From Mobula hypostoma (lineage: Eukaryota), in NCBI RefSeq assembly GCF_963921235.1, contig NC_086097.1:79920001-79984000 (forward strand): a stretch of 64,000 nt of DNA, given 5' to 3'. Made by a program: the position numbers and the translations under genes. Position 1 is the stretch's first letter. The number at the start of each line of letters is the position of its first letter. Under the pieces are notes generated by a model. That model was not told where the DNA came from. It searched no databases and saw only the letters and a program-made list of their open reading frames with translations. Of this stretch, positions 1,981 through 64,000 are shown piece by piece.

Positions 1981-4900
1981 AGGACAACTGATCATTTAGA
2001 AATAAATGATACTTTTAGAGTATTTTATTCTAAACTTCATAGTTCTGATCCTCTTAAAGATAATACTGTAATGGATAATTTTTTTAGACCAATTAAATAT
2101 CCCTACGCTTTCTGTTGATAACCGAAAACAGTTGGATCAAAGTATTTTCTCACAAAGAAACAACCAAGGCTGTACGCTCACTGCATTCAGGGAAAGCTCC
2201 AGGTCCTGATGGATTTTCTGGAGAATTTTATAAGGCTTTTTCTTCTTTGCTTATACCTCATTTACGTTCAGTATTTTTACAGATTCTTTTAAGTCAGGTA
2301 GGTTGCCACAATCTTTTTACGAAGCTTCTATTTCGCTTATGCTTAAAAATAAGAAACCAACTGAATGTTCTTCATATAGATCAATTTCCTTACTTAATGT
2401 TGATGCTAAAACCTTATCAAAAGTTCTGGCTCATAGGATGGAAAATATCTTACCAGCTATCATTTCTGACGCTCAGAATGGTTTTATCAAACATCCATAT
2501 TCTCACTTCAATATTCATCGGTTATTAAATGTTATCTATTCTCCTTCTAAGGAGATATCGGAGTGTGTGATATCCTTAGACGCTGAGAAGGCTTTTGATC
2601 GGGTTGAATGGCATTATTTATATAAAATTTTAGAAAAATTTAATTTTGGGTCCAACTTTATTCAATGGATTAAATTACTGTACTGCAATGAACCGGATTT
2701 GATCAGAGACCTCGAGATAAAGGAGCCATTCGGAGGTAGTGACAATAATATGATAAGTTTTAATCTACAAGTTGAGAGGGTGAAGGGAAAATCGGAAGTG
2801 TCAGTATTACAGTTGAACAAAGGGAACTATGGTGCTATGAGGGAGGAGCTGGTGAAAGTTCAATGGAACAATACCCTAGCAGGGATGACAGTGGAACAAC
2901 AATGGCAGGTAGTTCTGGGAATAATGCAGAAGGTGCAGGATCAGTTCATTCCAACGAGGAAGAAAGATCCTAAAGGGAGTAAGGGGAGTCCATGGCTGAA
3001 AAGTGAAGTAAAGGACAGTATATAAATAAAAGAGAAGTATAACATAGCAAAGATGAGTGGGAAGCTGGAGGATTGGGAAACTTTTAAAGAGCAAAAGAAG
3101 ATAACCAAAAAGGCAATACGCGGAGAAAAACTGAGGTACGAAGGTAAACTAGCCAAGAATATAAAGGAGGATAGTAAAAGCTTCTTTAGGTATGTGAAAA
3201 GGAAAAAAATAGTTAAGACCAAAATTGGGCCCTTGAAGACAGAAACAGGTGAATTTATTATGGGGAACAAGGAAATGGCAGACGAGTTGAACAGGTACTT
3301 TGGATCTGTCTTCACCAGGGAAGACACAAAGAATCTCCCAGATGTAATAGTGGCCAAAGGACCTAGGTAATGGATGAACTGAAGGAAATTTATATTAGGC
3401 AGGAAATGGTGTTGGATAGACTGTTGGGCCTGAAGGCTGATAAGTCCCCAGGACCTGATGGTCTGCATCCCAGGGTACTTAAGGAGGTGGCTTTAGAAAT
3501 GGTGAACACTTTGGTAATTATTTTCCAATGTTCTATAGATTCAGGATCAGTTCATCTGGATTGGAGGGCAGCTAATGTTGTCCCACTTTTCAAGAAAGAA
3601 GGGAGAGAGAAAACAGGGAATTATGGACCGGTTAGCCTGACAACAGTGGTGGGAAAGATGATGCAGTCAATTATAAAAGATGAAATTACGACACATTTGG
3701 ATAGCAGTTACAGGATAGGTCCGAGTCAACATGGATTTACGAAGGGGAAATCGTGCTTGACTAATCTTCTGGAATTTTTTGAGGATATAACTATGAAAAT
3801 GGACAAGGGAGGGCCAGTGGATGTAGTGTACCTGGACTTTCAGAAAGCCTTTGATTAAATCCCACATAGGAGATTAGTGGGCAAAATTAGGGCACATGGT
3901 ATTGGGGGCAGAGTACTGACATGGATTGAAAATTGGCTGGCTAACAGGAAACAAAGAGTAGCGATTAACGGGTCCCTTTCGGAGTGGCAGGTGGTGACCA
4001 GTGGGGTACTGCAGGGATCAGTGCTGGGACCGCAGCTGTTTACAATATACATTAATGATTTAGATGAAGGGATTAAAAGTAACATTAGCAAATTTGCAGA
4101 TGACACAAAGCTGGCTGGCAGTGTGAAATGTGAGGAGGATGTTATGAGAATGCAGGGTGACTTGGACAGGCTGGGTGAGTGGGCGGATGCATGGCAGATG
4201 CAGTTTAATGTGGATAAATGTGAGGTTATCCACTTTGGTGGTAAGAACAGGAAGGCAGATTATTATCTAAATGGAGTCAAGTTAGGAAAAGGGGAAGTAT
4301 AACGAGATCTAGATGTTCTTGTACATCAGTCACTGAAAGTAAGCATGCAGGTACAGCAAGTAGTGAAGAAAGCTAATGGCATGCTGGCCTTCATAACAAG
4401 GGGAATAGAGTATAGGAGCAAAGAGGTCCTTCTGCAGCTGTACAGGGCCCTGGTGAGACCACACCTGGAGTCTTGTGTGCAGTTTTGGTCTCCAAATTTG
4501 AGGAAGGACATTCTTGCTATTGAGGGAGTGCAGTGTAGGTTCACAAGGTTAATTCCCGGAATGGCGGGACTGTCATATGTTGAAAGATTGGAGCAACTGG
4601 ACTTTTGTATACACTGGAATTTAGAAGGATGATAGAGGATCTGATTGAAGATTATTAAGGGATTGGACACACTGGAGGCTGGAAGCATGTTCCCGCTGAT
4701 GGGTGCGTCCAGAACCAGGGGCCACAGTTTAAGAATAAGGGTAGGCCATTTAGAACGGAGTTGAGGAAAAACTTTTTCACCCAGAGAGTGGTGGATATGT
4801 GGAATGCTTTGCCCCAGAAGGCAGTGGAGGCCAAGTCTCTGGATGCTTTCAAGAAAGAGATGGATAGAGCTCTTAAAGATAGCAGAATCAAAGGTTATGG

Positions 4901-7167
4901 GGATAAGGCAGGAACTGGATACTGATTGTGGATGATCAGCCATGATCACAGTGAATGGTGGTGCTGGCTCGAAGGGCCGAATGGCCTACTCCTGCACCTA
5001 TTGTCTATTGTCTACTTATCTCCTTTTGCTTGGGTTCTTATTAATTCTCAGAATTCTAAACCACTTAAACTTCAACATGGAACCAGACAAAGTTGCCCTT
5101 TGAGTCCTTTGCTGTTTGACCTGGCCTTAGAACCTTCAGCTATTGCTTTTCGAGAATCTAATGATATCACTGGTATTTTACGGAAGGGTACTATCCACAA
5201 AGTTTCACTTTATGCGGATGACTTATTGCTTTACATTTCTAATGTCGAAACTTTGTTACCTTCCGAGCTTTCTTTACTCTCTAGTTTTAGTCAGTTTTCT
5301 GGATATAAATTGAACCTACACAAGAGTGAACTTTTTCCTTTGAATAATTTAGTATCAACTGATATTAACCTTCCTTTTAAAATTGTAAGAAACCAATTCA
5401 CTTATTTGGGTGTAACAATTACTAAGAATAATAAATACCTATTTAAAGAAAATTTTCTTTATTAAATTATATAAAACACTTTATCAAATTGATCGCCCCT
5501 TTCGCTATCATTGATTGGTCGAATTAATTCTATCAAAATGAATGTTTTACCTAAATTTACATATCTCTTTCAGGCTTTACCCATTTTTATTCCTAAATCC
5601 TTTTTTGACTCTCTGGACTCTATTTTATCCTCCTATATATGGAAAAGTAAATGTCCTCGATTGAATAAAGTCCATCTCCAAAAAGTTAAAAAGAACGGAG
5701 GTTTAGCTTTACCAAATTTTAGGTTTTATTACTGCGTAGCTAATATATGGAATCTCATGTTTTGGTTATACTATATTAATCATGAGGACTGTCCCGGGTG
5801 GGTTTCTTTAGAAGCTAACTCCGTTAATAAATTTTCTATTATCTCTCTTTTGGGATCTTTACTTCCTTTATCCTGAAGTAAGATAACTGAAAATGTGGTA
5901 GTCAAACATACATTGAGGATTTGGATATAATTTAGAAAACACTTTGGTTTATTGAGGTTCTCCCTTTCTAGTCCCATTTTTTAAAATTATCTTTTTAAGC
6001 CTTCTATGACTGATGTAGTTTTATGTTTCCAGGATCTGTTTGTTGGAGGAAGTCTTTCTTCGTTCGAACAACTGTCAACTAAATATAGTTTACCAAAAAT
6101 CCATTTTTTTCGGTACTTACAAATTAGAGATTTTCTGCGATCTCAATTATATACAATTCCTAATAGTCCTGATAAGAATGTATTAGATGAAATTCTTAAT
6201 ATGAAATCATTTTATAATGGTTCAATATCCAATATTTATGATATGTTGTTGGGAATGAGAAATGATTCTTTAGACAAAATCAAAAATCTTTGGGAACAAG
6301 ATTTACAGACTTCAATTTCTGAAGAAACTTAGAATCAAATTTTAAAATTGGTTAATACTTCATCTTTATGTGCTCGTCATTCCTCCTACAATTTAAAGTG
6401 GTTCATAGGGCTTACATGACCAAGGATAAGTTATCTCGTTTTTATATGGATATATCTGCCTACTGCGATAGGTGTAACACTGGAGAAGCTTCATTTATTC
6501 ATATGTTTTGGACATGCCCAAGTCTTGGAAAATATTGGAAGGAAGTATTCCAAACTTTTTCTGTACTCTTTAAAGTAAATTTTAAGCCTAATCCTTTGAC
6601 TGCCCTATTTGGTATTGCTGGAAGGAAAGATATCATCTTGAAGACATTTGATTTGCACATTCTGGCTTTTATCTCTCTTATGGCTTAGAGGGCGCTTTTG
6701 TTTAAATGGAAGGATGCTGTTCCGCCTAACCATGCTCAGTGGTTATGGGATGTTATGGCATGCTTAAATTTAGAAAAGATTCGTTGTTCAATTTCTGAAT
6801 CCAACCAAGAGTTTCAAAATTTGTAGGGGCCGTTTTTAAATTATTTTCATAATCTTTGACTTCTCATTAAAGTACATAAGTTGGTTAATAGCATATTTTA
6901 TTATCTGGTAAGGTTTTTTTTTCTTTTTTTCCCAAACAGCTTCGACTTTGGTAGTGGGTATAGATTTTTTTTTAATAAAACTGTTTGTATTCTAATATAC
7001 CAATCAATCTAATTGATATGAATATAAGGTAAGGAGTTCGTTAATGTGATTCAATATACTGTATCTGGTATTACTGTATATTTTCTTTTGTTTTATAATA
7101 TGTATTCTCTTGGACTTTGTATTCTTCTATATAGAAATCAACAAAAATATTGGAAAAGAAAGAAAAA
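1981..7167 (+). mobile_element. L1-clade LINE, ORF2 remnant plus 3' UTR, split by a CR1 at 2685-5012
   Basis: KAPGPDGF, SYRSISLLNVDAK, LDAEKAFDRVEW, GTRQSCPLSPLLF, VSLYADDLLLY, C-terminal CDRC...HMFWTC and an A-rich tail near 7140-7167. The frame WIKLLY|LSPFAW rejoins across the CR1. Confidence 0.92.
2685..5012 (+). mobile_element. CR1 LINE, 5'-truncated, inserted into the L1
   Basis: KSPGPDGLHPRVLKE, QHGFTKGKSCLTNL, YLDFQKAFD, SKFADDTK and LVRPHLE motifs. (ctattgt)n tail. TACT at both junctions (2681-2684 and 5013-5016). Confidence 0.95.
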
Positions 7168-8595: not shown

Positions 8596-9159
8596 TACTT
8601 CGAATTTTGAATCTAATTCCTGAATAGCTCCAGAAAAAATACCTTGAGAGGTGCCACTGACTCCTGCACAGACTGTCCATTGAGATAAGAAGATGCATTG
8701 CTGAGCAGAATAAAGAACTGCACAAAGGTTTATAGTAGAATAGTGTAGTTGGTATACCAAGTATGGAGTAAAATGAAAAACACCACTAAGAATGAAATTG
8801 CAAAGAAACCTTCATCTTACAATTCATCATTTTTCCCACTTATATTCAAATAGATTACTTAAGACTCAAATATACTTCCAATGGCTTTAATATTTTTCAT
8901 ATGGTTCATATGAAGATAAAATATCTTAATTGCCCTTCATTCCCACTCATTGTTAGCATTCCTAAAGTTGATTAGAAAATGATTCAAAGAATTAAAGTTA
9001 CGTCTCTATAATTTTTGAACACAAGAACTTAACAATTACATACAAAGTACTCAACAGAATAAGTTATGTTTTGTCTAGTATATTTCAATAAACAAATCTC
9101 ATTTTGCAGAAGATAATTATTACATAAATGTGTGTTGATTTTGGGTACTTCATACTTAC

Positions 9160-9238
9160 AATGAAGGATCTTGGACCAAGTCTTTCAGGTTTATCCCACT
9201 TCTATCTTCTGCAAGGTTTCTGAAGCAGCTATCACTCA
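9160..9238 (-). CDS. GPHN: Gephyrin coding exon 2 (G domain, MogA-like N-terminus), 79 nt
   Basis: Minus strand reads catcttttacag|TGAGTGATAGC...GATCCTTCATT|gtaagtatg, with canonical acceptor and donor. It translates to (V)[25 protein letters not shown](L), which matches the vertebrate gephyrin N-terminus as I recall it. Not present in the ORF track. Confidence 0.96.
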
Positions 9239-9627
9239 CTGTAAAAGATGAACATAAAATCATATGATATTTCAAAACACTGCCCACACAGCAAGACTCT
9301 CCAATGCTTCCCTTTCCTGTCAACTTTTCCTTTCCCCTCTTCTAAGCAATTGTCAACTGCAGGGAAAATAAGTCTCCTCATCACCAGCTGTGTTGTAGAA
9401 CCTCACTGAAATTACCAGCCTTCAGGCGTGAAGTGGACAGTGAGCTTTGGCAGAACATTCAACCACAGGAAACAATTTTGATTAGCAAGGTACACTATTA
9501 TAGGAAATTCTACTTTTAGGCAGTGGAGCACAAGAGTTCAGAAAGTTTGTACAATTGTATTCTATGTTCAATTTCAACAGTGGCACTACAAACTCATTCC
9601 ATTAAACAATCAAAGCCATCAAGATAT

Positions 9628-51571: not shown

Positions 51572-53392
51572 AGATATTTTTAGTTATATAAAGAGTAAAA
51601 GGTGAGAGTTGACATTGGACCACTAGAAAATGATGCTGGTGAGGTAGTAATGGGGGACAAAGAAATGGCAGATGAACTTAATGAAGGGGTACTTTGCATC
51701 TGTCTTCACTGTGGAAGACACTAGCAGTGGACCAGAAGTCTATGAGTGTCAGGGAGCAGGAGTGAGTGCCATTACTATTACAATGGAAAAAGTGCTAGAC
51801 AAGCTCAAAGATCTTAAGATGGATGAGTCACCTGGACCAGATGGGCTACATCCCAGAGTTCTGAGAGAGGTTGCTGAAGTGATAATGGATGCATTGACCA
51901 TGATCTTTCAAGAATCACTTAATTCCTAAATGACCCCATTGGACTGGAAGATTGCAAATGTCACTCCACTCTTTAAGAAGGAAGAGAGACAAAAGAGGGG
52001 AAATTATAGGCCAGTTAGTCTAACCTCAGTGGTTGGGAAAGTGTTAGAGCCTATTATTAAGAATGAGGTTTTGGGGTACTTGAAGACTAATGATAAAATA
52101 AGTCAAAGTCAGCATGGTTTCTCTCAAGGGAAATCTTGCCTGACAACTCTGTTGGAGCTCTTCAAGGAAGTAACAAGCAGAGTGGACAAAGGAGGTGCAG
52201 TGGATGTCATTTACTTGGATTTTCAGAATGCATTTGATAAAATGCCATACCAGGCTGTTTAACAAGATAAAATCCTATGGCATTACAGGAAAGATACAGG
52301 GTTGGATAGAGGAATGGCAGACAGGCAGGAGGCAACAGGTGGGAATAAAAGGGGCCTTTTCTGCCAGTGTCTAGTGGTGTTCCTCAGGGGTCAGTACTGA
52401 GAACGCTACTTTTCACGTTGTTTGTCAATTATTTGAATAACAGAACTGATGGCTTTGTAACCAAGTTTGTGATGATACGAAGATAGGTGGAGGGGTAGGT
52501 AATGCTGAAGATGCAATGCGACTGTAGCAGGACTCAGACAAATTGGAAGAATGGGAAAAAAAGTGGCAGATGGAATACAGTGCTGGGAAAAGTATGATAA
52601 TACATTTTGGTAAAAGGAACAATTGTGCAGGCTATTATCTAAATGGGGAGAAGGTTCAAACATCAGAGGTGCAGAGGCACCTAGGAGTCCTTGTGTAAGA
52701 CTCCCAGCAGGTTAATGTACAGGTTGAGTCTGTGGTAAAGGCAGCAAATGCAATGTTGATATTTATTTTAAGGGGAATAGAATATAAAACCAAGGAGATA
52801 ATGCTGAGCCTTTATAAGACACTAGTCAAACCATACATGGATTACTGTCAACAGTTTTGGGTTCCATATCTCAGAAAGTATGCGTATGTTGTTAGTGGAC
52901 AGAGTCCAGAGGAGATTTACGAGGATGATTCTGGGACTTAAGGGGTTAACATATGAGGAATGTTTGCAGCTTTTGGCCTGTACTCATTGGAATTTAGAAG
53001 AATGCTGGGGGATCTCAGTGAAACCTAACGAATGTTGAAAGTCTAGATAGGGTGAAAGTGGATAGAATGTTTCCTATGGTGGGGATGTCCAGAACTAGAG
53101 GGCACATCCTCAAAATTGAGGGACGACCTTGCAGAATAGAGGTAAGTGGGATTTTTTTGTTAGCCAGAGAGTAGTGGAATCCATGGAATGCTCTGCCACA
53201 GACTGCGGTGGTGGACAAATTGGTGGGTATACTTAAGGCGGAAGTTGATTGCTTCCCTGATTGATCAGAACATCAAAGCATATGGTGAGAAGCAGGCATA
53301 TGGGGTTGAATGGGATCTGGGATCAGCCATGATGGAATGGTGGAACAGATTCGATGGGTTGAATAGCCTAACTCTGCTCCTATGTCTTATGG
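51572..53392 (+). mobile_element. CR1 LINE, 5'-truncated
   Basis: SPGPDGLHPRVL, QHGFSQGKSCL and YLDFQNAFD motifs; tail ctatgtcttatgg. Confidence 0.9.
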
Positions 53393-53397
53393 TTATA

Positions 53398-53994
53398 CGA
53401 GGGGTGATTGATAAGTTTGTGGCCTAAGGTAAAAGCAGCCAATTTCAGAAAACCTAGCATATTTATTTTTCCTACATTTACACACTTAATCCAGAGGTCA
53501 TGGAGTATACGGATCCCTTCTTTGTAGAAGTCGGTGACTTGGAGCTCCAGAAGTGGTCCATAGCAGGGGTGATTGATAAGTTTGTGGTCTAAGGTAGAAG
53601 GAGATGAGTTATTAACTTCAAACTTTCTGCATTTTCACTCAAAGAGTTGAACTACATGTGCATGTAACGACAGCTGCATAACTCATCTCCTTCTACCTTA
53701 CGCCACGAACTTATCAATCACCTCTGCTGTGGACCACCTGGAGGTCCAAGACGCTCTTGTTATATGCACGTGCAGTTCAATTCTTTGAGTGATAATGCAG
53801 AAAGTTTAAAGTTAATAACTCATCTCCTTCTACCTTAGGGCATGAACTTATCAATCACCCCTGCTGTGGACCATTTCTACAAAGGAGGGATCTGCATGCT
53901 CCATGACCGCTGGACTAAGTGTGTACATGTAGGAGGGGACTATGTTGAAAAAATAAATGTGCTAGGTTTTCTAAAGTTGACTCCTTCTACCTTA
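53398..53994. mobile_element. Mariner-like MITE with multiplied internal TIR copies, right end truncated
   Basis: Starts TA|cgaggggtgattgataagtttgtggcctaagg. The motif recurs forward near 53564 and inverted near 53690-53722, 53830-53862 and partially at 53980-53994. Confidence 0.75.
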
Positions 53995-55464
53995 TCTGCA
54001 GCATAGCCTGGTATGGAAATTCCATCGCACAGGAATGTAAGAGGCTTGTGAGATTAAACTGTATAATTGTTATTTTCATTGCAGTTTAATGTTTTATGCC
54101 TACTTGTATTTATATAATTACCCATATATCAGTAATTATTCTGTGCTTCCTCTAATGGTTACAGTTCTGTCTCTTTCTGAAAGCATTATTTAAATAGGGG
54201 CTATATGATTGAATAATTCTGATCTGCAAATTTGAATGGAAAGGCTCTTACATATGGCATAAGAAGGGCAGAGCATGTTGGTCCGCCTTCTTTGCTTCTT
54301 TTCCTTTCCCTTCTCGCATCTTGCTACTCCCCAGTTCCAATTCTCTTTGTTCTACAGTATTAGTGCTTAATAAAACAATTGTGAAGCAACACTTTTTATG
54401 CCTCTTTCTTGGCTTTAAAAAACATCAGAATCCAACTATTTGGTGTACTCATCAGATCGGTTGTGAAGATTTACAAACTCTGAAGAATCCCAGAAGAAGT
54501 AGAAATTTTCAGCACCTTAACATAAATGTTGGTAAGAACTTCCTCTGATTCCAGATCATCTGAGAAAAAAGCAGCTAGTTCTCCTTAATACACTATCTGA
54601 TGGAAGTGTAGAAGGGCTATTTTGGAAAACAGATCTGCCAGTTTCAAATTATTGAAACTTCAATTGCAGGGCAATCTAATGGTTGCAATCTACTGATACT
54701 TCAGATCACAGTTGAAATAATAAAAAGTTCATACAAATTAAGTGTTACACGAGATTAAAACAATGACTAAAGTCATGAAACAAAGTTCTTATTCTGCATA
54801 AAACATCTCAGTTTGATAAGATTAATGAAAAAATCCAGAGGAAAAATACCATCAATGTTAAGCTTATTAAGAAGGCATGTAATAATAACCAAAGATTGCT
54901 TAAGGGAAAGGAAAATTAACGTATAATTAAGCAAAAAAGTTAACGAAGCAAGTAAAGAAGTCATCTAATAAATTGGGAAAACAACATGGTAAGTGTAATC
55001 AAATCAAAATGCATTGTACAGAGCTAAGAAGAAAACCAAGGAATATGAAAAAGCTAAGCAAGAATTTCAAGTGGGCAATCCTTCCAGTTCAGTCGGTGAT
55101 TGTGCCAGTGACGCTGCTTCTGATGTTTCTCCTTGGGAAACAACCCATACATAGGACAGTCCTCTGAGACAGCGACACCATCTGAACTCCGAGGAATTAA
55201 AGAATAAACATGGTATAGACTGTACAGTGGTCTCTAGTGACTCAAGTGAGGATGACAGTGATGAAACAATAGGATTGCCAGTTATGTTAAAGCCGGATCA
55301 AGTAAAGACCAAGGTTTGAGATGGCACTGGTAAAGATTAGCAACTACTTCCTGGCAACAAACAAAAGAAAGAATACAACTAAATATTTTATTAATAACCC
55401 TTTCTCTTATAAAATATATGGTAAACGATTCCTGCAAACAATGGAGAGGTGAGTGAAGGCAAGC

Positions 55465-56093
55465 TGAATCTAGGGTCAAAATGCGTGGGTGCCAGGTGAA
55501 CGGAGCAGAGGAGAGGTAGATTCAAGGCCCATCTATCTAAACCAAGAGCCAGATGCATTGACAAGACAGGGTTTTGGGACAAGAGGAGAAGGTCAGGCTG
55601 GCTCTGCTCACTGTTCTGAAACATTTACTTCGTTCTACACTGAACTGAGGCTGAGGCCTGCTCTGGACTCCCAAGTTTGAGGGCTCCACGATATTTACCC
55701 GTCTCTGCACTGAACTGAGGCTGAGGCTGTGGCCTGCTCTGGACTCCCAAGTTTGAGGGCTCCACGATATTTACTCGTCTCTGCACTGAACTGAGGCTGA
55801 GGCTGTGGCCATGGCCAGCTTTGGACTCCAAGTTTGAGGGCTCTGTGACGTTTACTTGCCTCTGTGCTAAACTGACGCTCTGTGGCCTGCTTGAGTTGCA
55901 CCGGGCTTCGTGTCTATGGATTCACTTTTGTTCTGAACACCATTTTCACGATGTGTACTTTTCTCTCTACATATTGAATGCTTGACATTTTTCTTTTTTA
56001 TGTGTTCTTTGTTCTGTGGCTATTTGTAGAAGACCAATCTCATGTTTGTAGAATGTACACATACTTCAACAATAAAAGTACTTTGAGTTTTGA
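55465..56093 (+). mobile_element. Non-autonomous retroposon with an internal tandem array (about 3.5 x 70-80 bp, 55624-55890)
   Basis: Repeated cactgaactgaggctgaggc...ggactcccaagtttgagggctc; Rex-like 3' end aataaaagtactttga. Confidence 0.65.
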
Positions 56094-56144
56094 AGACACG
56101 TAGCACTGAAGATGGAACCTATGAAAGGAGAGTGACCGTGGATT

Positions 56145-59100
56145 ACAATAAGATCCTAAGACATAGGAGCAGAATTAGGCCACTTGGCCTATTGCATCTG
56201 CTCTGTCATTCCACGATGGCTAATGTATTATTCCCTGAACTCTATTCTCTTGCTTTCTCCCCATAAACTTTGACACCCTGACTAATCAGGAATTCATCAA
56301 CCTCCGCTTTAAATATACCCAAAGATTTGTCCTCCAGAGTTGTCCATGGCAATGAATTCCACAGATTCACTACCTTCTGACTAAAGATAATATCTTCATC
56401 TCTGTTCTAAAGGACATGCCCTCTCCTAGACTCATACACTACAGGAAACATATCCTCTCTACCTAGGCCTTAAAATATTTGATAGGTTTCAATGAGATTC
56501 CTTCCTCATTCTTCTAAACTTCAGCAAGTACAGACCTAGAGCCATCAAATGTTCCTCATACGTTAGTTACCCTTTCATTCCTGGAATCATTCTCATGAAC
56601 TTCCTCTCGACACTCTCCAATGCCAGCACATCTTTTATTAGACAAGGGGCCCAAAACTGCTTACAATGCTCCAAGTATTGTCTGACCAATGCATTATAAA
56701 GCCTCAGCATCAAATCCTTGCTCTTGTATTCTTTTCCACTCAAAATGAATGCAAGCATTGCATTTGCCTTCCTTCCCACTGACTCAACCAGCAGGTTAAC
56801 CTTTAGGGAATCCTGCACAAGAACTCCCAAATCCCACTGAACCTGATTTTTGAGTTTTCTCCACATTTAGAAAATAGCCTACACCTTTATTTCTTCTACT
56901 AAAGTGCTTCCTGGCACTGTATTCCATCTGCCACTTCTTTGCCCATTCTCTCAATTTGTATAAGTCCTATGCAGACACACTGCTTCCTTAACACTACCTG
57001 CCCCTCAACCTATCTTTGCATCATTTGCAAACTTGGCCAAAAAGCCAAAAAATTCCATGGTCCAAATTGTTGGCATATATTTCCCAAATATTGATTGGCA
57101 TGTCCCTAAAGCGAGGGGTTTAGATGGGGCAGAGTTTGTTAGGTATGTTGAAGAAAGTTTCTTGACACAATATGTAGATAAGCCTACAAGAGGAGAGGCT
57201 GTACTTGATATGGTATTGGGAAATGAACCTGGTCAGGTGTCAGGTCTCTCGGTGGGAGAGCATTTTGGAGATAGTGATCACAATTCTATCTCCTTTACCA
57301 TAGCGTTGGAGAGGGAGAGGAACAGACAAGTTAGGAAAGCGTTTAATTGGAGTAAGGGGAAATATGAGGCTATCAGGCAGGAACTTGGAAGCATAAATTG
57401 GAAACAGATGTTCTCAGAGAAATGTACGGAAGAAATGTGGCAAATGTTCAGGGGATATTTGCATGGAGTTCTGCGTAAGTACATTCCAATGAAACAGGGA
57501 AAGGATGGTAGGGTACAGCAACCATGGTGTACAAAGGCTGTTGTAAATCTAGTCAAGAAGAAAAGAAGAGCTTCCGAAAAGGTTCAAAATGATAGAGATC
57601 TAGAAGATAATAAGACAAGCAGGAAGGAGCTTAAGAATGAAATTAGGAGAGCCAGGAGGGGCCATGAGAAGGACTTGGCAGACAGGATTAAGGAAAACTC
57701 CCAAGACATTCTACAAGTATGTGAAGAGTAAGAGGATAAGACATTAGAGAATAGGGCCAATCAAGTGTGACACTGGAAAAGTGTGTATGGAACCGGAGCA
57801 GATAGCAGAGGTACTTAATGAGTACTTTGCATCAGTACTCACTACGGAAAAGGATCTTGGCGATTGTAAGGATGACTTACAGCGGACTGAAAAGCTTGAG
57901 CACGTAGATATACAGAAAGAGGATGTGCTGGAGCTTTTGGAAAGCATCAAGTTGGATAAGTCACTGGGACCGGACGAGATGTACCCCAGGCTACTGTGGG
58001 AGGTGAGGGAGGAGATTGCTGAGCTTCTGGTGATGATCGTTGCATCATCAATAGGGACGGGAGAGGTTCCAGAGGATTGGAGGGTTGTGGATGTTGTTCC
58101 ATTATTCAAGAAAGGGAGAAGGGTAGCCCAGGGAATTAAAGACCAGTGAGTCTTACTTCAGTGGTTGGTAAGTTGATGGAGAAGATCCTGAGAGGCAGGA
58201 TTTATGAACATTTGGAGAGGCATAATGCGATTAGGAATAGTCGGCATGGCTTTGTGAAAGGCAGGTCATGCCTTACGAGTCTCATTGAATTTTTTAAGGA
58301 TGTGACTCAACACATTGATGAAGGTAGAGCAGTAGAGGTAGTGTATATGGATTTCAGAAAGGCACTTAATAAAGTACCCCATGCAAGGTTTATTGAGAAA
58401 GTAAGGAGGCATGGGATCCAAGGGGACATTGCTTTGTGGATCCAGAACTGGCTTGCCCACAGAAGGCAAACAGTGGTTGTAGACAGGTCATATTCTGCAT
58501 GGAGGTTAGTGACCAGTGGTGTGCCTCAGGGATCTATTCTGGGATGCCTACTCTTCGTGATTTTTATAAATGACCTGGATGAGGAAGTGGAGGTATAGGT
58601 TAGTAAATTTGCTGATGACACAAAGGTTGGGGGTACTGTGGATAGTGTGGAGTGCTGTCAAAGGTTACAGTGGGACAATGATAGGATGCAAAAACGGATT
58701 GAGAAGTGGCAGATGGAGTTCACCCCAGATAAGTGTGAGGTGGTTCATTTTGGTAGGTCAAATTTGATGGCAGAATATAGTATTAATGGTAAGACTCTTG
58801 GCAGTGTGCAGGATCAGAGGGATCTTGGGGTCCAAGTCTACAGGACACTCAAAGCTGCTGCAAAGGTTAAGAAAGCATACAGTGCATTGGCCTTCATCAA
58901 TCATGAGATTGAGTTTAAGAGCCTAGAGGTAATGTTGCAGCTGTACAGTACCCTGGTCAGACACCACTTGGCATACTGTGCTCAGTTCTGGTCACCTCAC
59001 TATAGGAAGGATGTGCAAACTATAGAAAGGGCGCAGAGGAGATTTACAGGGATGTTGCCTGGATTGAGGAGCATGCCTTATGAGGACAGGTTGAGTGAAC

Positions 59101-61060
59101 TCGGCCTTTTTACCTTGGAGCGAAGGAGGATGAGAGATGACCTGATAGAGGTGTATAAGATGACGAGAGGCATTGGTTGTGGGGATAGTCAGAGGCTTTT
59201 TCCCAGGGCTGAAATGGCTAGTACGAGAGGGCACAGCTTGAAGGTGCTTGGAAGTAGGTACAGAGTAGATGTCAGGGGTAAGTTTTTTTAGACAGAGAGT
59301 GGTGAATGCGTGGAATGGGCTGCCAGCGACGGTGGTGGAGGCGGATACGATAGGGTCTTTTAAGAGACTCCTGGACAGGTACATAGAGCTCAGAAAAATA
59401 GAGGGCTATGGGTAACCCTAGCAAATTTCTAAGGTAAGGACATGTTCAACACCACTTTGTGAGCCAAAGGGCCTGTATTGTGCTGTAGGTTTTCTATGTT
59501 TCTATAACATGAAAATAAGAGGCCCCAATACCGGCTCCTGCAGCACACCACAAGTCACCAGCAACCAACCAGAAAGGGCCACCTTTACTTCCCTCTTGTT
59601 AAACAGTCTCATGTGCAGCAACTTGTCGAAGGCCTTCTGAAAATCCAAGTCAACGACAACCACAGATTACTTTGTATGTCCTGCTGGTTATTTCCTCAGA
59701 GAGTTCCGACAGATTTGTCAGGCAAGATTTCCCCTTAAGAAAACCATGCTGATTTTGGCCTACTTTATCATGCACTTCCAAGCACCTCAAAACCTCATCC
59801 TTAATAAAGAAACTCCAAGTTCTTTGAAACCACTGCCCTATAATTTCTTTTCTTTTGCCTTTTAAATTCTTTGAGTGAAATTTGTAATTTTCCTGTCCTC
59901 CAGAACCATTCCAGAATCTACAATCTCTTCAGCTACCTTTTTCAGAACCCTGGGGTGTGAACAATCTGGTCCAGGCAACTTATCCCCCTTCAGACCTTTT
60001 AATTTCCCAAGCATCCTCTCTTTATTCATATCATAGCAATACACTCACTTCCGTTCCAATAACTATCGAGCCTCCTATCACTATTGCACTGCCTGACTTT
60101 ATGCTTCCCGACTGAGCCTCAGAGCTGGCCACAATGCCACCGGCTTGGCTACTGCTGCCGTGCCCTGATAGGTCATCCCCCCCCTCGGCCCCCATCAGGA
60201 GTACCTAAGAGGTATACTTGTTGAGGAGAATGCCACAGATGAACCCTACACTGTCTGCTTACTCTCCTTACTTCTCCAACTACCATCTGAAGCCTGCACT
60301 CTGGGTGTACCACCTCAGTAAGAGTCTTATCTATGAGGTTTTCAGCCTCCACAATAGTCCTTACTACATCCAGCTCCAGCTTCAGTTCATCGACCTTATC
60401 AGCCAGGAGCTGAAATTGGGTGCACTTTCTACAGATGTAGTCATCAAGGAAACTGCGAGGTACCCTAAAATACCACATCTCACAGGAGCAGCATTCCACT
60501 GCCTGAATTACCATCCTGCCTCAAGCTTAGGTTCTAGCCTGTGTCTGTTCTCACCTAAGCTGGTGAGCCAGAGCCTGACCATTCTAACAATGACCCACTC
60601 CAACAGCGGCTGTTCCCACAAAGGCCACTCTGCTCACAGCCTACTTCTTTTTATTGATCCTAGTGGTGTGCTAAAAGATGGCAATGACTGCAGCTTGCTG
60701 TAAAGTTCCAAAAGGCCTCGAGCCCTTTTTAAACCATGCACAGCCTCACCAACAAATGACCTCTTGTGATGATTGCATTTCGCTGAAAAGTTCTGAAAGG
60801 CCCCAGGTTCTTTTCAAATATCACTCGGCCTCAACAATGAATGATATCTCGTGTTGATTGCAGCGCTCTGAGAAGTTCTAAAAGGCCCCGAGCTCTTTTT
60901 AATCCTTGGATACCTCTCTGATGAATGGCTTCTCACAATGATTACAGCCTTTTTTACCTGTTTCATTGTGCACCACAACCTCTGGTTGCTCACACTCCCT
61001 CTTGAGAACCTTCTGCTGCCGCTGAGGCATCCTGGACCCCAGCATCCGGGAGGCTAATCA
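56145..61060 (-). mobile_element. CR1 LINE including an ORF1 remnant, split by a plus-strand CR1
   Basis: 3' RT at 56145-57048, resuming near 59510. ORF1 zinc finger/leucine zipper AVECCSCEMW...ICRKC...L at 60173-60514. Confidence 0.8.
57065..59504 (+). mobile_element. CR1 LINE of a second family, 5'-truncated
   Basis: EN FPNIDW...[18 protein letters not shown] and KFADDTK, (ttctatgt)n tail. Confidence 0.93.
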
Positions 61061-61069
61061 ACTACTTGG

Positions 61070-62000
61070 TTCTTAATCAATGTATTGACGAGCTACCCCC
61101 TCTAGTGGCATACCTATCAACTAGGTTCAATACTCTGATGCCATGGATTCTGTTCTGTACCACTGGTGCATAAACATCAAGTGTGGTTGGCTTTCTCAGT
61201 TGATGGTCAACAATATCAGTGGAAATGGATACCACAAAGGCTCCACAGCAGTCCCACTGTCGATCACATGGCTTTGCAACAACATCTGAGGAACTTACCA
61301 GTCACTGATCGGCCTATCATACAATATGCGAATGATATTCCGACTGCATCTGATACTGCAAAACAACATGAACATGATGTGCTTTATTTGCTCAATTATC
61401 TATCCTCCAGAGGTCACAAAGCAAATCTAGACAAGGCACAACAGCAACAAGTAGTAGTGATTTAGCTGGGAAATAAAATTTCCCACAGTAAATGGGAAAT
61501 CACTGACCATCGTGCAAAAGTCGTAAGTTAGCAAAGCCAACTGCAACAGTTCAGTCAACTCCAGTCATTTCTAGTTTTGTGTCATTACAACAGAGCCTGG
61601 TTTGATTCGTGATGAAATTGCCCAACCATTCAACAAGCTGCTGAAGGGCAGTAAATGCACAGACAATGATGTGACTCTTAATGGCTCCTGGTGCTTCTGT
61701 GAAACAGGCACAACTGAAAACTCTGACTGAAGCCTGTAAGAGTGCAGAAAGAAGATCAACTAATATCTACATGATTCCTGATGTGCTTTTGAAGTTATTC
61801 ATAGGTTTGGAAACTTAGGGAGACAAAGAGGATTTGTTATGGCTGTAGGAACCCCAAGTAAGAATGGATAACCAGTACACGAACTCACAGATGCTATACA
61901 ATTGTTATTTTAAAATGTAAAGGCCACTCAAAATGACTACGATGGAAAGTTGTGCAAATGTATTTGCAGATGAAATGGCAAAAAAAGCACAGAAAAGGGT
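61070..62000 (+). pseudogene. ERV pol remnant (RT plus RNase H tail)
   Basis: LAFSVDGQQYQWKWIPQRLHSSPT, IIQYAND (YVDD-like), RGHKANLDKAQ, and NVFADEMAK. Confidence 0.8.
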
Positions 62001-62149
62001 AAAACAAATAAAAGAAGTGAAAAAGGTCAAAGAATTAAAAGAAGTACCAAGAATATAAGCAGTGAACCCAACAACTGAAATTATGGAAATGAAGTTGGAC
62101 CCTGTATCACAAACATACAAGATATTTTAGAGAAGCAAGCGTATTGCTT

Positions 62150-62762
62150 TAATCAGGAAAAGTACTGCAGCTTTAGAAAAAGTAAGCAATGACACTGCAG
62201 ATGTCTTGAGATAAGTAATAGCAGAAATAGGCGCCATGTGTAAGATGGTTCTTCAAAATTGTATGTCATTAGATCTTCTTTTGACAGTGGGGGGGGAATA
62301 TGTACAAGTGTAAGCAAGGACTGTTGTATTTAAATACATGACAAGTCTGAAAACATAAACAACAGGAATTCTGTAGATGCTGCAAATTCAAGCAACACAC
62401 ATAAAAGTTGCTGGTGAACGCAGCAGGCCAGGCAGCATCTCTAGGAAGAGGTGCAGTCGACGTTTCATGCCGAGACCCTTCGTCAGGACTAACTGAAGGA
62501 AGAAAGTCAGAAAACATAACTGATTTGGTTGATCGTACATGTAAAGAAGCAGCTAAAATACATCAGATGGGATTTCTTTGATTGGATTTGGATTTACTTA
62601 AGTCAAGAAAGCTGGGATTACTCAAAGTAACAAATCGTAATATTTATGCTGATATGTCTTATCATAATTTACATCTCTTTTACTGGTATAAGGGCAATCA
62701 TTAATATAGTTCAAACTCACGTAAGTGTGCCTACTAATCTAGCCAAGAATGACATAATCTAA
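62150..62762 (+). pseudogene. ERV env TM remnant (gamma-type)
   Basis: Heptad region, ISD-like LQNCMSLDLLL, CX6CC (CTSVSKDCC after a 1-nt frameshift), hydrophobic anchor IVIFMLICLIIIYISF, stop near 62762. Confidence 0.85.
62359..62503 (-). mobile_element. Penelope-like terminus with hammerhead motif (62454-62490), inserted in env
   Basis: TSD aagtctgaaaacataa / aagtcagaaaacataa (62343-62358 and 62504-62519). Minus strand agtc-CTGACGA...GAAACGTC-gact. Confidence 0.85.
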
Positions 62763-63619
62763 TGAATAATTTGAAGAATATATATCTGATATTTCTATAA
62801 CTTAGGTAGTTTATTATCTTGAACTTAACGTAGATTCCACAAGTTGTTTCTGCCTCTGAATTTTCAGATATAATCACACGTAAGTGTGATTGAGAATCAA
62901 AGGGGAAATGTTGGATTAGACTGTATAATTGTTATTTGAAATTTAACCTTTTATGTCTGCTTGTATTTTATATAATTACCTATATCCATGTAATTGTTCA
63001 GTGTGTCCACTACAGGAATAGTTCTGGAAGCTTCTTTGGTATTGCAGGTGAACTCTTATCTACAAATTTTAATGGAATGGCTCTAAAGGGCAGAGCATAT
63101 TGTCCCACCATCTTTGTTTCTTCTTTTCCTTCCCCTACTAGCCTCTTGCTACTCCCTAATTTCCAATTATCTTTGTTCTCTTAATGTTTAATAAAACAAT
63201 CGTAAAGCAACAAGTTTCATATCTCTTCCTTGACTTCCAAAAGAACTTTGAATCAAAAATATCAGAATCCAACAGGCTACAGAGAAAGCAGGGCTCAGCT
63301 AGTTTCATCACGGTAAAGCTCTCCCCTTGGCTGAGGGCATGTACAAGAGGCGACATCTCAGGAAGGTGATATCTATCATTAAGGACCTCCACCATCCAGG
63401 CCATGCCTTTTCTTGTTGCTACCAGCAAACAGGAGATCTCAAGGTTCAACAACAGTTTCTTCCCGTCATGTAAATTATGTATAACTTAAATTTATGTCAA
63501 TTTATGTTTGTGTGCTATTTTGCGCCTACTGCATAAAGCTAATTTTCATGGCATTTAAACCCTAGGTACCTACACCCATGATAATGGGAATTGTTAGTCA
63601 TTTATATAAGAATGAGAAT

Positions 63620-64000
63620 GTATAATACATGGTTAGTCAGTTTGTACATGACACTAAAATAGATGGTACCGTAGGGTATGAAAAATGTTATCAAAAAGAT
63701 GCAGGACTTTATTAAAAGCCTAGTTAAAGTCCATGTCTACTGCCTTGCCCTTACCAATTTTCTTGGCCACCTCTTCAAAAATCTCAATAAAATTCATGAT
63801 ACATGATTTCCTATGTATAAAACCAGGCTGACTATCCCTAATTAGTTCCTGCTTTTCCAAATGTACATAAATCACAGAAACACCTGTAGTAAATTTTCCA
63901 CCACAAATGTTAGGCTCACCAGCCTGCAGTTCCCCAACTTGTCCCTGTAGTCCCTCTTAAATAAAGACACATCATCAGACACTCTTCAGTCTTCAGGTAC
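63620..64000. mobile_element. CR1 RT fragments in opposite orientations
   Basis: FVHDTKIDG (FADDTK-like) on the plus strand; QPGFI...SCIMNFIE on the minus strand. Confidence 0.6.

Follow-up and report, generated by a model that had tools for sequence, protein, structure and literature searches.

A dead class I-type provirus in a gephyrin intron of Mobula hypostoma: an old insertion, likely from a protease-deleted variant of an abundant family

How did a broken, retrovirus-like element come to lie in the gephyrin gene (GPHN) of the ray Mobula hypostoma, and is it alone of its kind? The window analysed here is a stretch of 64,000 nucleotides (NCBI RefSeq assembly GCF_963921235.1, contig NC_086097.1, positions 79,920,001 to 79,984,000 of the forward strand), and all coordinates below count from its first letter. 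At 54047-63274 it contains what an initial annotation, made from the letters only, had described as a cryptic endogenous retrovirus (ERV) of great age. That it is old is not at issue; its solitude is. The element is a member of an abundant old family of class I type, not a lone cryptic one, and our reading is of an unremarkable, though very old, representative of a defective form of that family. With a probability of roughly 0.85, we consider it a dead provirus that arose by a single insertion, likely from a protease-deleted variant copied in trans.

The ends of the element record how it arrived. Six collinear direct-repeat blocks, spaced by 8.82-8.86 kb, mark a pair of long terminal repeats (LTRs), the limits of which were placed by the termini of the family, TGTTGG...CCAACA; the 3' LTR keeps TG...CA, and the 5' LTR ends in CCAACT, its final A having changed. 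A TATATAA box and an AATAAA signal are kept at corresponding places in both (Table 1). Their global alignment with MAFFT has 345 aligned sites with 34 transitions, 36 transversions and 10 indel runs, that is 20.3% mismatches (p = 0.203) and a Kimura two-parameter (K2P) distance of 0.234-0.238, and in a search of the ray's own genome the 3' LTR probe matches the 5' LTR with E = 5.4e-38. GGCT stands immediately outside both LTRs. The right flank was searched against the genome, and seven paralogues of the host long interspersed element (LINE) that reach the junction were aligned, both flanks being entered as separate rows: six run on uninterrupted with a single GGCT (..AAGAGGCTACAGAG..), and the seventh diverges upstream. 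Since the host LINE closes exactly over a 4-bp target site, a single integration event accounts for the whole, and the GGCT target-site duplication (TSD) is real. The same empty-site paralogues reject two independent solo LTRs. What the provirus entered was an old LINE fragment, of which only ~50 bp is still visible on the left side. The features first picked out by eye were thus sound: homologous LTRs about a fifth mismatched (the 5' LTR measuring 391 bp rather than 392), a GGCT duplication with a host LINE that rejoins across it, a TGG like that of a primer-binding site (PBS), a polypurine tract (PPT), some 5.7 kb of later insertions and, in sum, a genuine single old provirus. It is the cryptic, one-off character that does not survive the genome-wide comparison.

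The PBS has decayed. Compared across copies, the 18 nt that follow the spacer resemble TGGCGTAGTCGGCAGGAT; the window copy agrees with this expected site at 11 of 18 positions and other copies at 11-16, several of the mismatches sitting at its two CpG sites. When the corresponding end of the tRNA was sought as a 20-nt pattern, 10 places in the genome matched (the reversed control gave none), and at all five loci scanned among these matches ARAGORN predicts a tRNA-Ser (AGA), which suggests that tRNA-Ser served as the primer of the family.

That there is a family is plain from its size. In the 3.48-Gb genome the 3' LTR probe gave 1,569 first-look candidates and an internal probe 1,240. Forty candidates were scored per probe; all are at most 82% identical, and the partner LTR itself ranked twelfth. 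Twelve LTRs differ between copies by a mean K2P of 0.30 (range 0.20-0.51), and the LTR pair of another provirus, L025, stands at 0.247 against 0.234 for the window pair. All copies are diverged to a similar degree. As the distance within a provirus is about that between copies, the family probably multiplied in a burst close in time to the window insertion, nearly all of the divergence having accumulated later. P0002, a related intact Pol of 1,118 amino acids (aa) that was our reference for tblastn mapping onto the window, finds family copies in the ray genome at 42-50% identity with 4-13 stops, and no young-looking copy of the family is among the 41 places scored of 33,209 candidates. The best-scoring matches of P0002 there belong to other class I lineages, at 31-39% identity, some with long open frames; they include stop-free pol matches in open frames of more than 1,100 aa, and are much younger than the family.

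From what kind of member does the window copy descend? In the window type, gag-side sequence runs directly into the reverse transcriptase (RT) fragment KTRSTEDGTYERRVTVDY, which corresponds to about residue 170 of P0002, so that the protease and the N-terminus of RT are deleted. This is no private accident: among 11 loci selected by their RT, a segment homologous to 55148-55314 lies ~35-190 bp before the RT match in eight; a ninth instead carries a protease, and the remaining two are not informative. L004 and L032 are arranged like the eight. By contrast, the fuller copies L028 and L031 have an aspartic protease (LLDTEA and LLHTGA; gag-asp_proteas, E = 1.2e-4) and also keep the RT N-terminus (..PVWPVKKVNGTWRL..) between the gag-side segment and the RT match. 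A junction common to many loci must be older than the window insertion, and because an element with no protease and a truncated RT could not copy itself, we infer that complete members mobilised it in trans. The window copy therefore likely descends from a protease-deleted, non-autonomous variant. The course of events would be that one member of this old and abundant class I-type family entered, a single time, the LINE fragment within the gephyrin intron, the source being the protease-deleted variant, the enzymes being supplied by complete relatives, and integration being carried out, presumably, by a retroviral integrase of the type that duplicates 4 bp. Deleted, non-autonomous ERV variants amplified in trans are known in HERV-H/RTVL-H and in ETn (with MusD). 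As in those systems, the deleted variant outnumbers complete copies among the sampled loci; unlike theirs, the present deletion removes the protease and the RT N-terminus and keeps most of pol and env, and copying in trans would here follow from what the variant lacks.

Once the three later insertions are subtracted, the provirus proper measures ~3.4 kb, in the order LTR, PBS, leader, partial RT, partial RNase H, transmembrane subunit (TM), PPT and LTR. Pfam was run on stop-free pieces, since whole frames carry stop codons. The piece at 61139-61462, which contains QYANDI and GHKANLDKAQ, matches RVT_1 with E = 4e-9; P0002 aa 170-408 maps by tblastn to 61009-61694, the best high-scoring pair (aa 222-379) being 52% identical over 158 aa. 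P0002 aa 409-617 (connection domain plus the first part of RNase H) have no counterpart in the window copy, having been deleted just upstream of RNase H; RNase_H matches are found in the homologous parts of other family copies. Matches to the other copies end at 62163/62164 and env matches start at 62165, two points that lie 1.3-1.7 kb apart in L025, L027 and L028, where the interval holds Integrase_H2C2, integrase-core-like and MLVIN_C pieces and a short surface subunit (SU). This direct joint means that the window copy has neither integrase nor SU. The connection domain, integrase and SU appear to have been lost, and the data are compatible with loss before as well as after copying. An order of gag-like region, RT, RNase H and TM had been read from the letters: its last three terms hold, and the gag-like label does not, since no Pfam family matched 54459-55314, for which position and homology among copies are what suggest gag.

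In the TM, LQNCMSLDLLLTVGG at 62251-62295 is followed by a frameshift in a G run and then by CTSVSKDCC (the CX6CC motif) at 62301-62327, and the reading resumes beyond an insertion like a short interspersed element (SINE) as a membrane-span-like stretch. In a search space of small size, proteins bearing TLV_coat align with the TM pieces over the ISD/CX6CC region (E = 7e-5 to 4e-3), and TLV_coat is weakly matched in one family copy (E = 0.006). An env TM remnant lies between pol and PPT in the window copy as in L025, L027, L028 and L031. In the fuller copies a CWxC motif (CWAC, CWVC) and a signal-peptide-like stretch come soon after the integrase end (L025, 4258-4700; L028, reverse, 4296-4644; L031, reverse, 5105-5420; L027, 3700-4706); in three of these four the reading passes almost directly to the TM, and only L027 keeps an SU of ~200 aa. 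The family envelope seems to be without a receptor-binding domain, whether from the outset or through early loss. As for the window copy, its coding capacity is gone and nothing suggests a present function; Rfam gives nothing at gathering scores on 53000-64000.

Table 1. Features of the provirus, of the elements inserted into it and of the host gene in the window
Feature	Position	Strand	Remarks
Left TSD copy GGCT	54043-54046	+	immediately outside 5' LTR
5' LTR	54047-54437	+	391 bp; TATATAA at 54111, AATAAA at 54369
Decayed PBS	54441-54458	+	TGGTGTACTCATCAGATC; TGG at 54441 after 3-nt spacer from 5' LTR
Leader and putative gag remnant	54459-55314	+	Ser/Asp/Glu-rich stretch near 55240-55290; homologous in other copies
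Insertion 1	55315-56090		776 bp, 70-81-bp tandem repeats; boundaries within ~5 nt
RT fragment	56091-56147	+	KTRSTEDGTYERRVTVDY; adjoins gag-side segment directly in deleted variant
Insertion 2	56148-61067	-	4,920 bp; minus-strand LINE split by plus-strand LINE at ~57050-59505
RT palm and thumb remnant	61068-61694	+	P0002 aa ~185-408; two in-frame stops, frameshifts
RNase H remnant	61681-62164	+	P0002 aa 618-692 (at 61681-61904) and C-terminal ..NVFADEMAKKA
Env TM remnant	62165-62760	+	heptad region, LQNCMSLDLL, CX6CC, membrane span; fused directly to RNase H end
Insertion 3	62359-62503		SINE-like unit of ~130 bp and one copy of 15-bp duplication
PPT	62899-62908	+	AAAGGGGAAA; abuts 3' LTR
3' LTR	62909-63274	+	366 bp; TATATAA at 62969, AATAAA at 63190
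Right TSD copy GGCT	63275-63278	+	immediately outside 3' LTR
Gephyrin exon	9159-9245	-	residues 21-48; PDB 1ihc/1jlj, E = 1.7e-13

To which retroviruses does the family belong? The element is a retrovirus of class I kind. A 4-bp target duplication is typical of class I ERVs; in addition, the TM has an ISD-like motif and CX6CC, the Pol is nearer to retroviral RT and RNase H than to Ty3, env follows pol, and the LTR-PBS...PPT-LTR frame is enclosed by a TSD. Against RT-RNase H, P0002 scores 444 bits with murine leukaemia virus (MLV)/XMRV, 210 with foamy virus, 156 with Ty3 and ~77 with HIV-1, and a Gypsy/Ty3 origin is rejected by the first of these values against the third. P0002 has the full set of domains, from protease through RT, RNase H and integrase to MLVIN_C (the last at 47 bits). 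In the fuller copies Pfam recognises RNase_H (E = 2.9e-6) and Integrase_H2C2 (E = 1.5e-6), and fragments resembling MLVIN_C (L028, E = 4.7e-6; L031, E = 2.9e-6) stay just below the cut-off, at 27 bits against 29.2; the window copy has no integrase. The nearest named relatives of P0002 are predicted Gag-Pol proteins of Coilia grayii (64%), Alosa pseudoharengus (61%) and Astyanax mexicanus (61%); the next matches drop to ~40% and come from sturgeon, walleye epidermal hyperplasia virus 1 (WEHV-1), birds, mammals, sharks and skates.

A Pol tree was built by a quick IQ-TREE search from fragments of seven family copies (X at breaks) and 37 proteins, a reference set without SnRV or ZFERV. The seven copies form one group (support of 99 in the SH-like approximate likelihood ratio test), sister to P0002/P0003 (95), and together they are nested in a group of 17 rows with teleost proteins (99). 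A branch of 99 parts this group from one of 24 rows, which comprises WEHV-1, four mammalian gamma-like Pols and the ERVs of birds, reptiles, amphibians, sharks and skates. Identities over RT-RNase H agree with the tree, falling from 49-58% with P0002/P0003 through 42-48% with the teleost proteins and 32-36% with WEHV-1 down to 25-31% with a rodent gamma-like Pol. On this evidence the family would fall outside the epsilonretroviruses (the group of WEHV and walleye dermal sarcoma virus) and the gammaretroviruses proper, in a separate clade with teleost ERVs. The initial annotation had placed the element in class I, related to gamma and epsilon: the class I affinity stands, and a position close to either group does not. 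No grouping of the RT with Gypsy, for which that annotation had told one to look, was seen, the family being nested among vertebrate ERV Pols.

The resemblance to gamma- and epsilonretroviruses such as MLV and WEHV-1 is real in several respects: the 4-bp TSD, the order protease-RT-RNase H-integrase with a possible MLV-type integrase C-terminus in fuller copies, the LQN..LDLL and CX6CC motifs of the TM, and CWxC in the SU of fuller copies. The family differs from them by a Pol identity of 25-36%, by lying on the other side of the branch supported at 99, by giving no Gag_p30 or Gag_MA match, by a PBS that fits tRNA-Ser and by an SU that is very short in most fuller copies. With the teleost ERV Pols and P0002/P0003 it shares a clade and the set of Pfam domains, MLVIN_C being just below the cut-off in the family copies; those Pols are intact and longer than 1,000 aa, whereas the family copies read are all broken. 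The intact Pols closest to the ray family come from unassigned contigs and from clupeiform and characiform teleosts, not from the shark and skate ERVs listed. Such an affinity of a ray family to teleosts may reflect an old transmission between classes.

The position of the provirus in GPHN, as first proposed, is confirmed by an exon that was found by a short motif and then checked against PDB (Table 1); by eye, 28 of 28 aligned positions are identical to the gephyrin G-domain there. A PF00994 profile run on the ray genome did not find the GPHN exons and gave a single match elsewhere. In gene orientation, the ERV lies 45-54 kb upstream of this exon, antisense to GPHN; the insertion would presumably lie in intron 1, no first exon having turned up within the window. 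The suggestion that the locus could be dated through its orthologues has proved right as well. Contigs of organism A, probably the source of the DNA, show no difference to the window. In organism B one contig covers 62909-63377 with 6 differences and others bridge 55314/55315 and 61067/61068; for organism I, one contig runs over 62791-63390 (21 differences, 15 gap letters); contigs of organism C span both ends of the element, 53996-54512 with 40 differences and 62794-63390 with 63 differences plus 27 gap letters. The junction contigs of B, I and C each cross the boundary between ERV and host by more than 31 nt, and because the nearest paralogous LTRs are at least 18% different, these contigs are orthologues. 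The window insertion is present in at least these three other organisms. Orthologous divergence amounts to 78 of 3,987 positions in B (2.0%), 105 of 2,486 in I (4.2%) and 103 of 1,114 in C (9.2%), sums that leave out records differing by 14-21%, which are paralogues or LINE copies; stretches of B, I and C that no contig covers carry no weight as absence.

The insertion is thus old in relative terms: the LTR distance of 0.234 is ~2.4 times the corrected distance between A and C (~0.10), so that, if rates are equal, the insertion is ~2.4 times older than the split of A and C. In years, t = K/2u makes everything depend on the rate u. The mammalian average of 2.2e-9 per site per year quoted in PMC4422223 yields 53 million years (My); 0.5e-9, assumed for a catshark in PMC10699275, yields 234 My; and 2.2e-10, assumed for elephant shark in PMC4422223, yields 532 My, which is implausibly old, so that this last rate cannot apply here. 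The absolute age accordingly ranges from ~50 to more than 230 My with the rate chosen, and so does the merit of calling the element unusually ancient, as had been done at the outset. A search of the literature found no absolute neutral rate for elasmobranchs; on this point PMC8455134 supports a slower pace of evolution in cartilaginous fishes than in bony vertebrates, which gives relative slowness only. A bolder version would make the insertion one of the oldest vertebrate proviruses datable by both LTRs and orthology, at ~100-250 My, and would derive it from a deep class I branch, so far undescribed, that was primed by tRNA-Ser, had an envelope almost without receptor-binding part and once circulated in cartilaginous as well as ray-finned fishes; this we regard as doubtful.

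Might the locus nevertheless be explained otherwise? A family much younger than it looks, its divergence inflated by hypermutable sites, by misalignment of AT-rich LTRs or by a fast local rate, would account for a transition/transversion ratio of about 1 and for the many indels in the LTRs, and no direct rate is known for the host. It is very unlikely in view of an insertion shared with an organism ~9% divergent at the locus, which therefore predates their split at any rate, of a second provirus with an equally large LTR distance (0.247), and of pol remnants full of stops and frameshifts into which three different elements were later nested; a young family was rejected on LTR distances together with orthology across organisms. 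A shade less probable still is a lone, independently endogenised ancient retrovirus, that is one germline infection followed by random deletions. It would fit the presence of an LTR pair, TSD, PBS, PPT and env remnant, and an env-bearing lineage could indeed have been infectious, but it leaves more than 1,200 first-look candidates for LTR and internal probes alike without explanation, and it founders on the gag-to-RT junction: being identical in eight of 11 loci, and already seen in many independent loci with different flanks, this junction is older than the insertion, nor could an element with no protease and a truncated RT replicate by itself. The least probable account is that the LTRs belong to two family copies, through two insertions or recombination, which would make their divergence undatable. 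Two other copies, at K2P 0.199 and 0.214, are slightly nearer to the 3' LTR than its partner is (0.234), as a chimera would have it; yet recombination between elements would give unlike flanks, whereas GGCT is identical outside both LTRs and paralogues close over a single GGCT, the 5' LTR has its partner as the closest of the 12 LTRs compared, and the interior is collinear with that of other copies.

A dead provirus of the old class I-type family, likely copied in trans from the protease-deleted variant, remains our preferred reading, and several points weigh against it. The 11 loci are those most similar to the window copy, so that eight of 11 overstates the share of the variant in the family. 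Pfam recognised no gag domain, and specifically no gamma-type Gag (MA, p12, p30 CA), in the window copy and four others, a lack that decay or deletion may explain; no full-length form of the family is therefore established, and the protease-bearing copies may themselves be incomplete. Orthology was assessed with contigs, not reads, of other organisms aligned at 80% or more. Transitions and transversions stand at ~1 in the LTR pair against ~2 in recent differences between species, which suggests saturation or some misalignment and makes the K2P distance a rough one. The window TM pieces are not recognised by Pfam and have nothing significant in PDB, where the TM of a relative has filovirus GP2 as its best match (E = 0.12). 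In PDB the 108-aa RT piece of the window matches gamma and foamy viruses alike (both E ~1e-3), and since it cannot separate the two, the class I placement rests on relatives. The tree, finally, comes from a quick search with long, gappy and decayed rows and an insecure root, and its rows were extracted with P0002 as guide, which slightly favours P0002.

Class I-type ERVs are already known from cartilaginous fishes (PMC4422223), and two surveys cover further genomes, of three cartilaginous species (PMC6001957) and of 12 chondrichthyans (PMC10699275). Our literature search met with no account of the window family or the GPHN insertion, nor of any fish ERV primed by tRNA-Ser, which is weak evidence because repeat libraries were outside the reach of that search. 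The closest comparison is with the CmiERVs of the elephant shark (Han 2015, PMC4422223), which are also cartilaginous-fish ERVs with kin among the retroviruses of fishes, and whose dates likewise come from LTR divergence; compared by divergence, not by sequence, their 0.024 and 0.033 are 7-10 times less than the 0.234 found here.

Why should one such relic matter? Slow change in cartilaginous fishes keeps old insertions readable for longer than elsewhere, and the locus offers two independent clocks for one insertion, the LTR pair and species that differ by ~2%, 4% and 9%. Once named species are set on a time tree, the dating of elasmobranch ERVs by their LTRs, for which the literature uses assumed rates that differ more than twofold, could be calibrated by it, and a firm minimum age would follow for a retroviral lineage with teleost relatives. 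For annotation, the lesson would be that much of this ERV signal stems from a defective variant spreading as a retrotransposon, not from repeated infection. The locus is also a specimen of a retroviral lineage of fishes that, in the tree, stands away from epsilon and gamma proper.

The three later insertions, delimited by comparison with other family copies, add up to 5.84 kb (776 bp, 4,920 bp and ~145 bp). In those copies 55314 abuts 56091-56147 within ~5 nt, this segment abuts 61068 within ~1 nt, and 62358 is followed by 62504. Insertion 1 is missing from L025, L027, L030 and L032, whose flanks abut; insertion 3 is missing from L005, L025 and L027, whose flanks overlap by 15 bp. In insertion 2, repeat ends lie at 56148 and 59505, and the plus-strand LINE matches RVT_1 with E = 1e-18; the best named protein matches of the nested LINE are from devil ray (71%), zebra shark (68%) and stingray (62%), in keeping with an elasmobranch host. 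The high-copy LINE 3' end at 56148-56421 has also hit L031 (reverse, 290-566), independently and at a nearby but different position, and it occurs in the flanks of L005, L006, L007 and L009. The SINE-like unit of 62359-62503, with its 15-bp target duplication, is 97% identical to a copy in L011; the contig depth summed over it in organisms A and B far exceeds that in I and C, a hint that it expanded recently and in one lineage. To the left of the ERV, a young repeat resembling a miniature inverted-repeat transposable element (MITE), at 53889-53994 and also 53395-53873, hides most of the host LINE. It is 92% and 91% identical to two inverted copies in L031 and accounts for two direct repeats of the window. 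The contig match of organism C stops at 53996, a hint that this MITE-like insertion is absent there.

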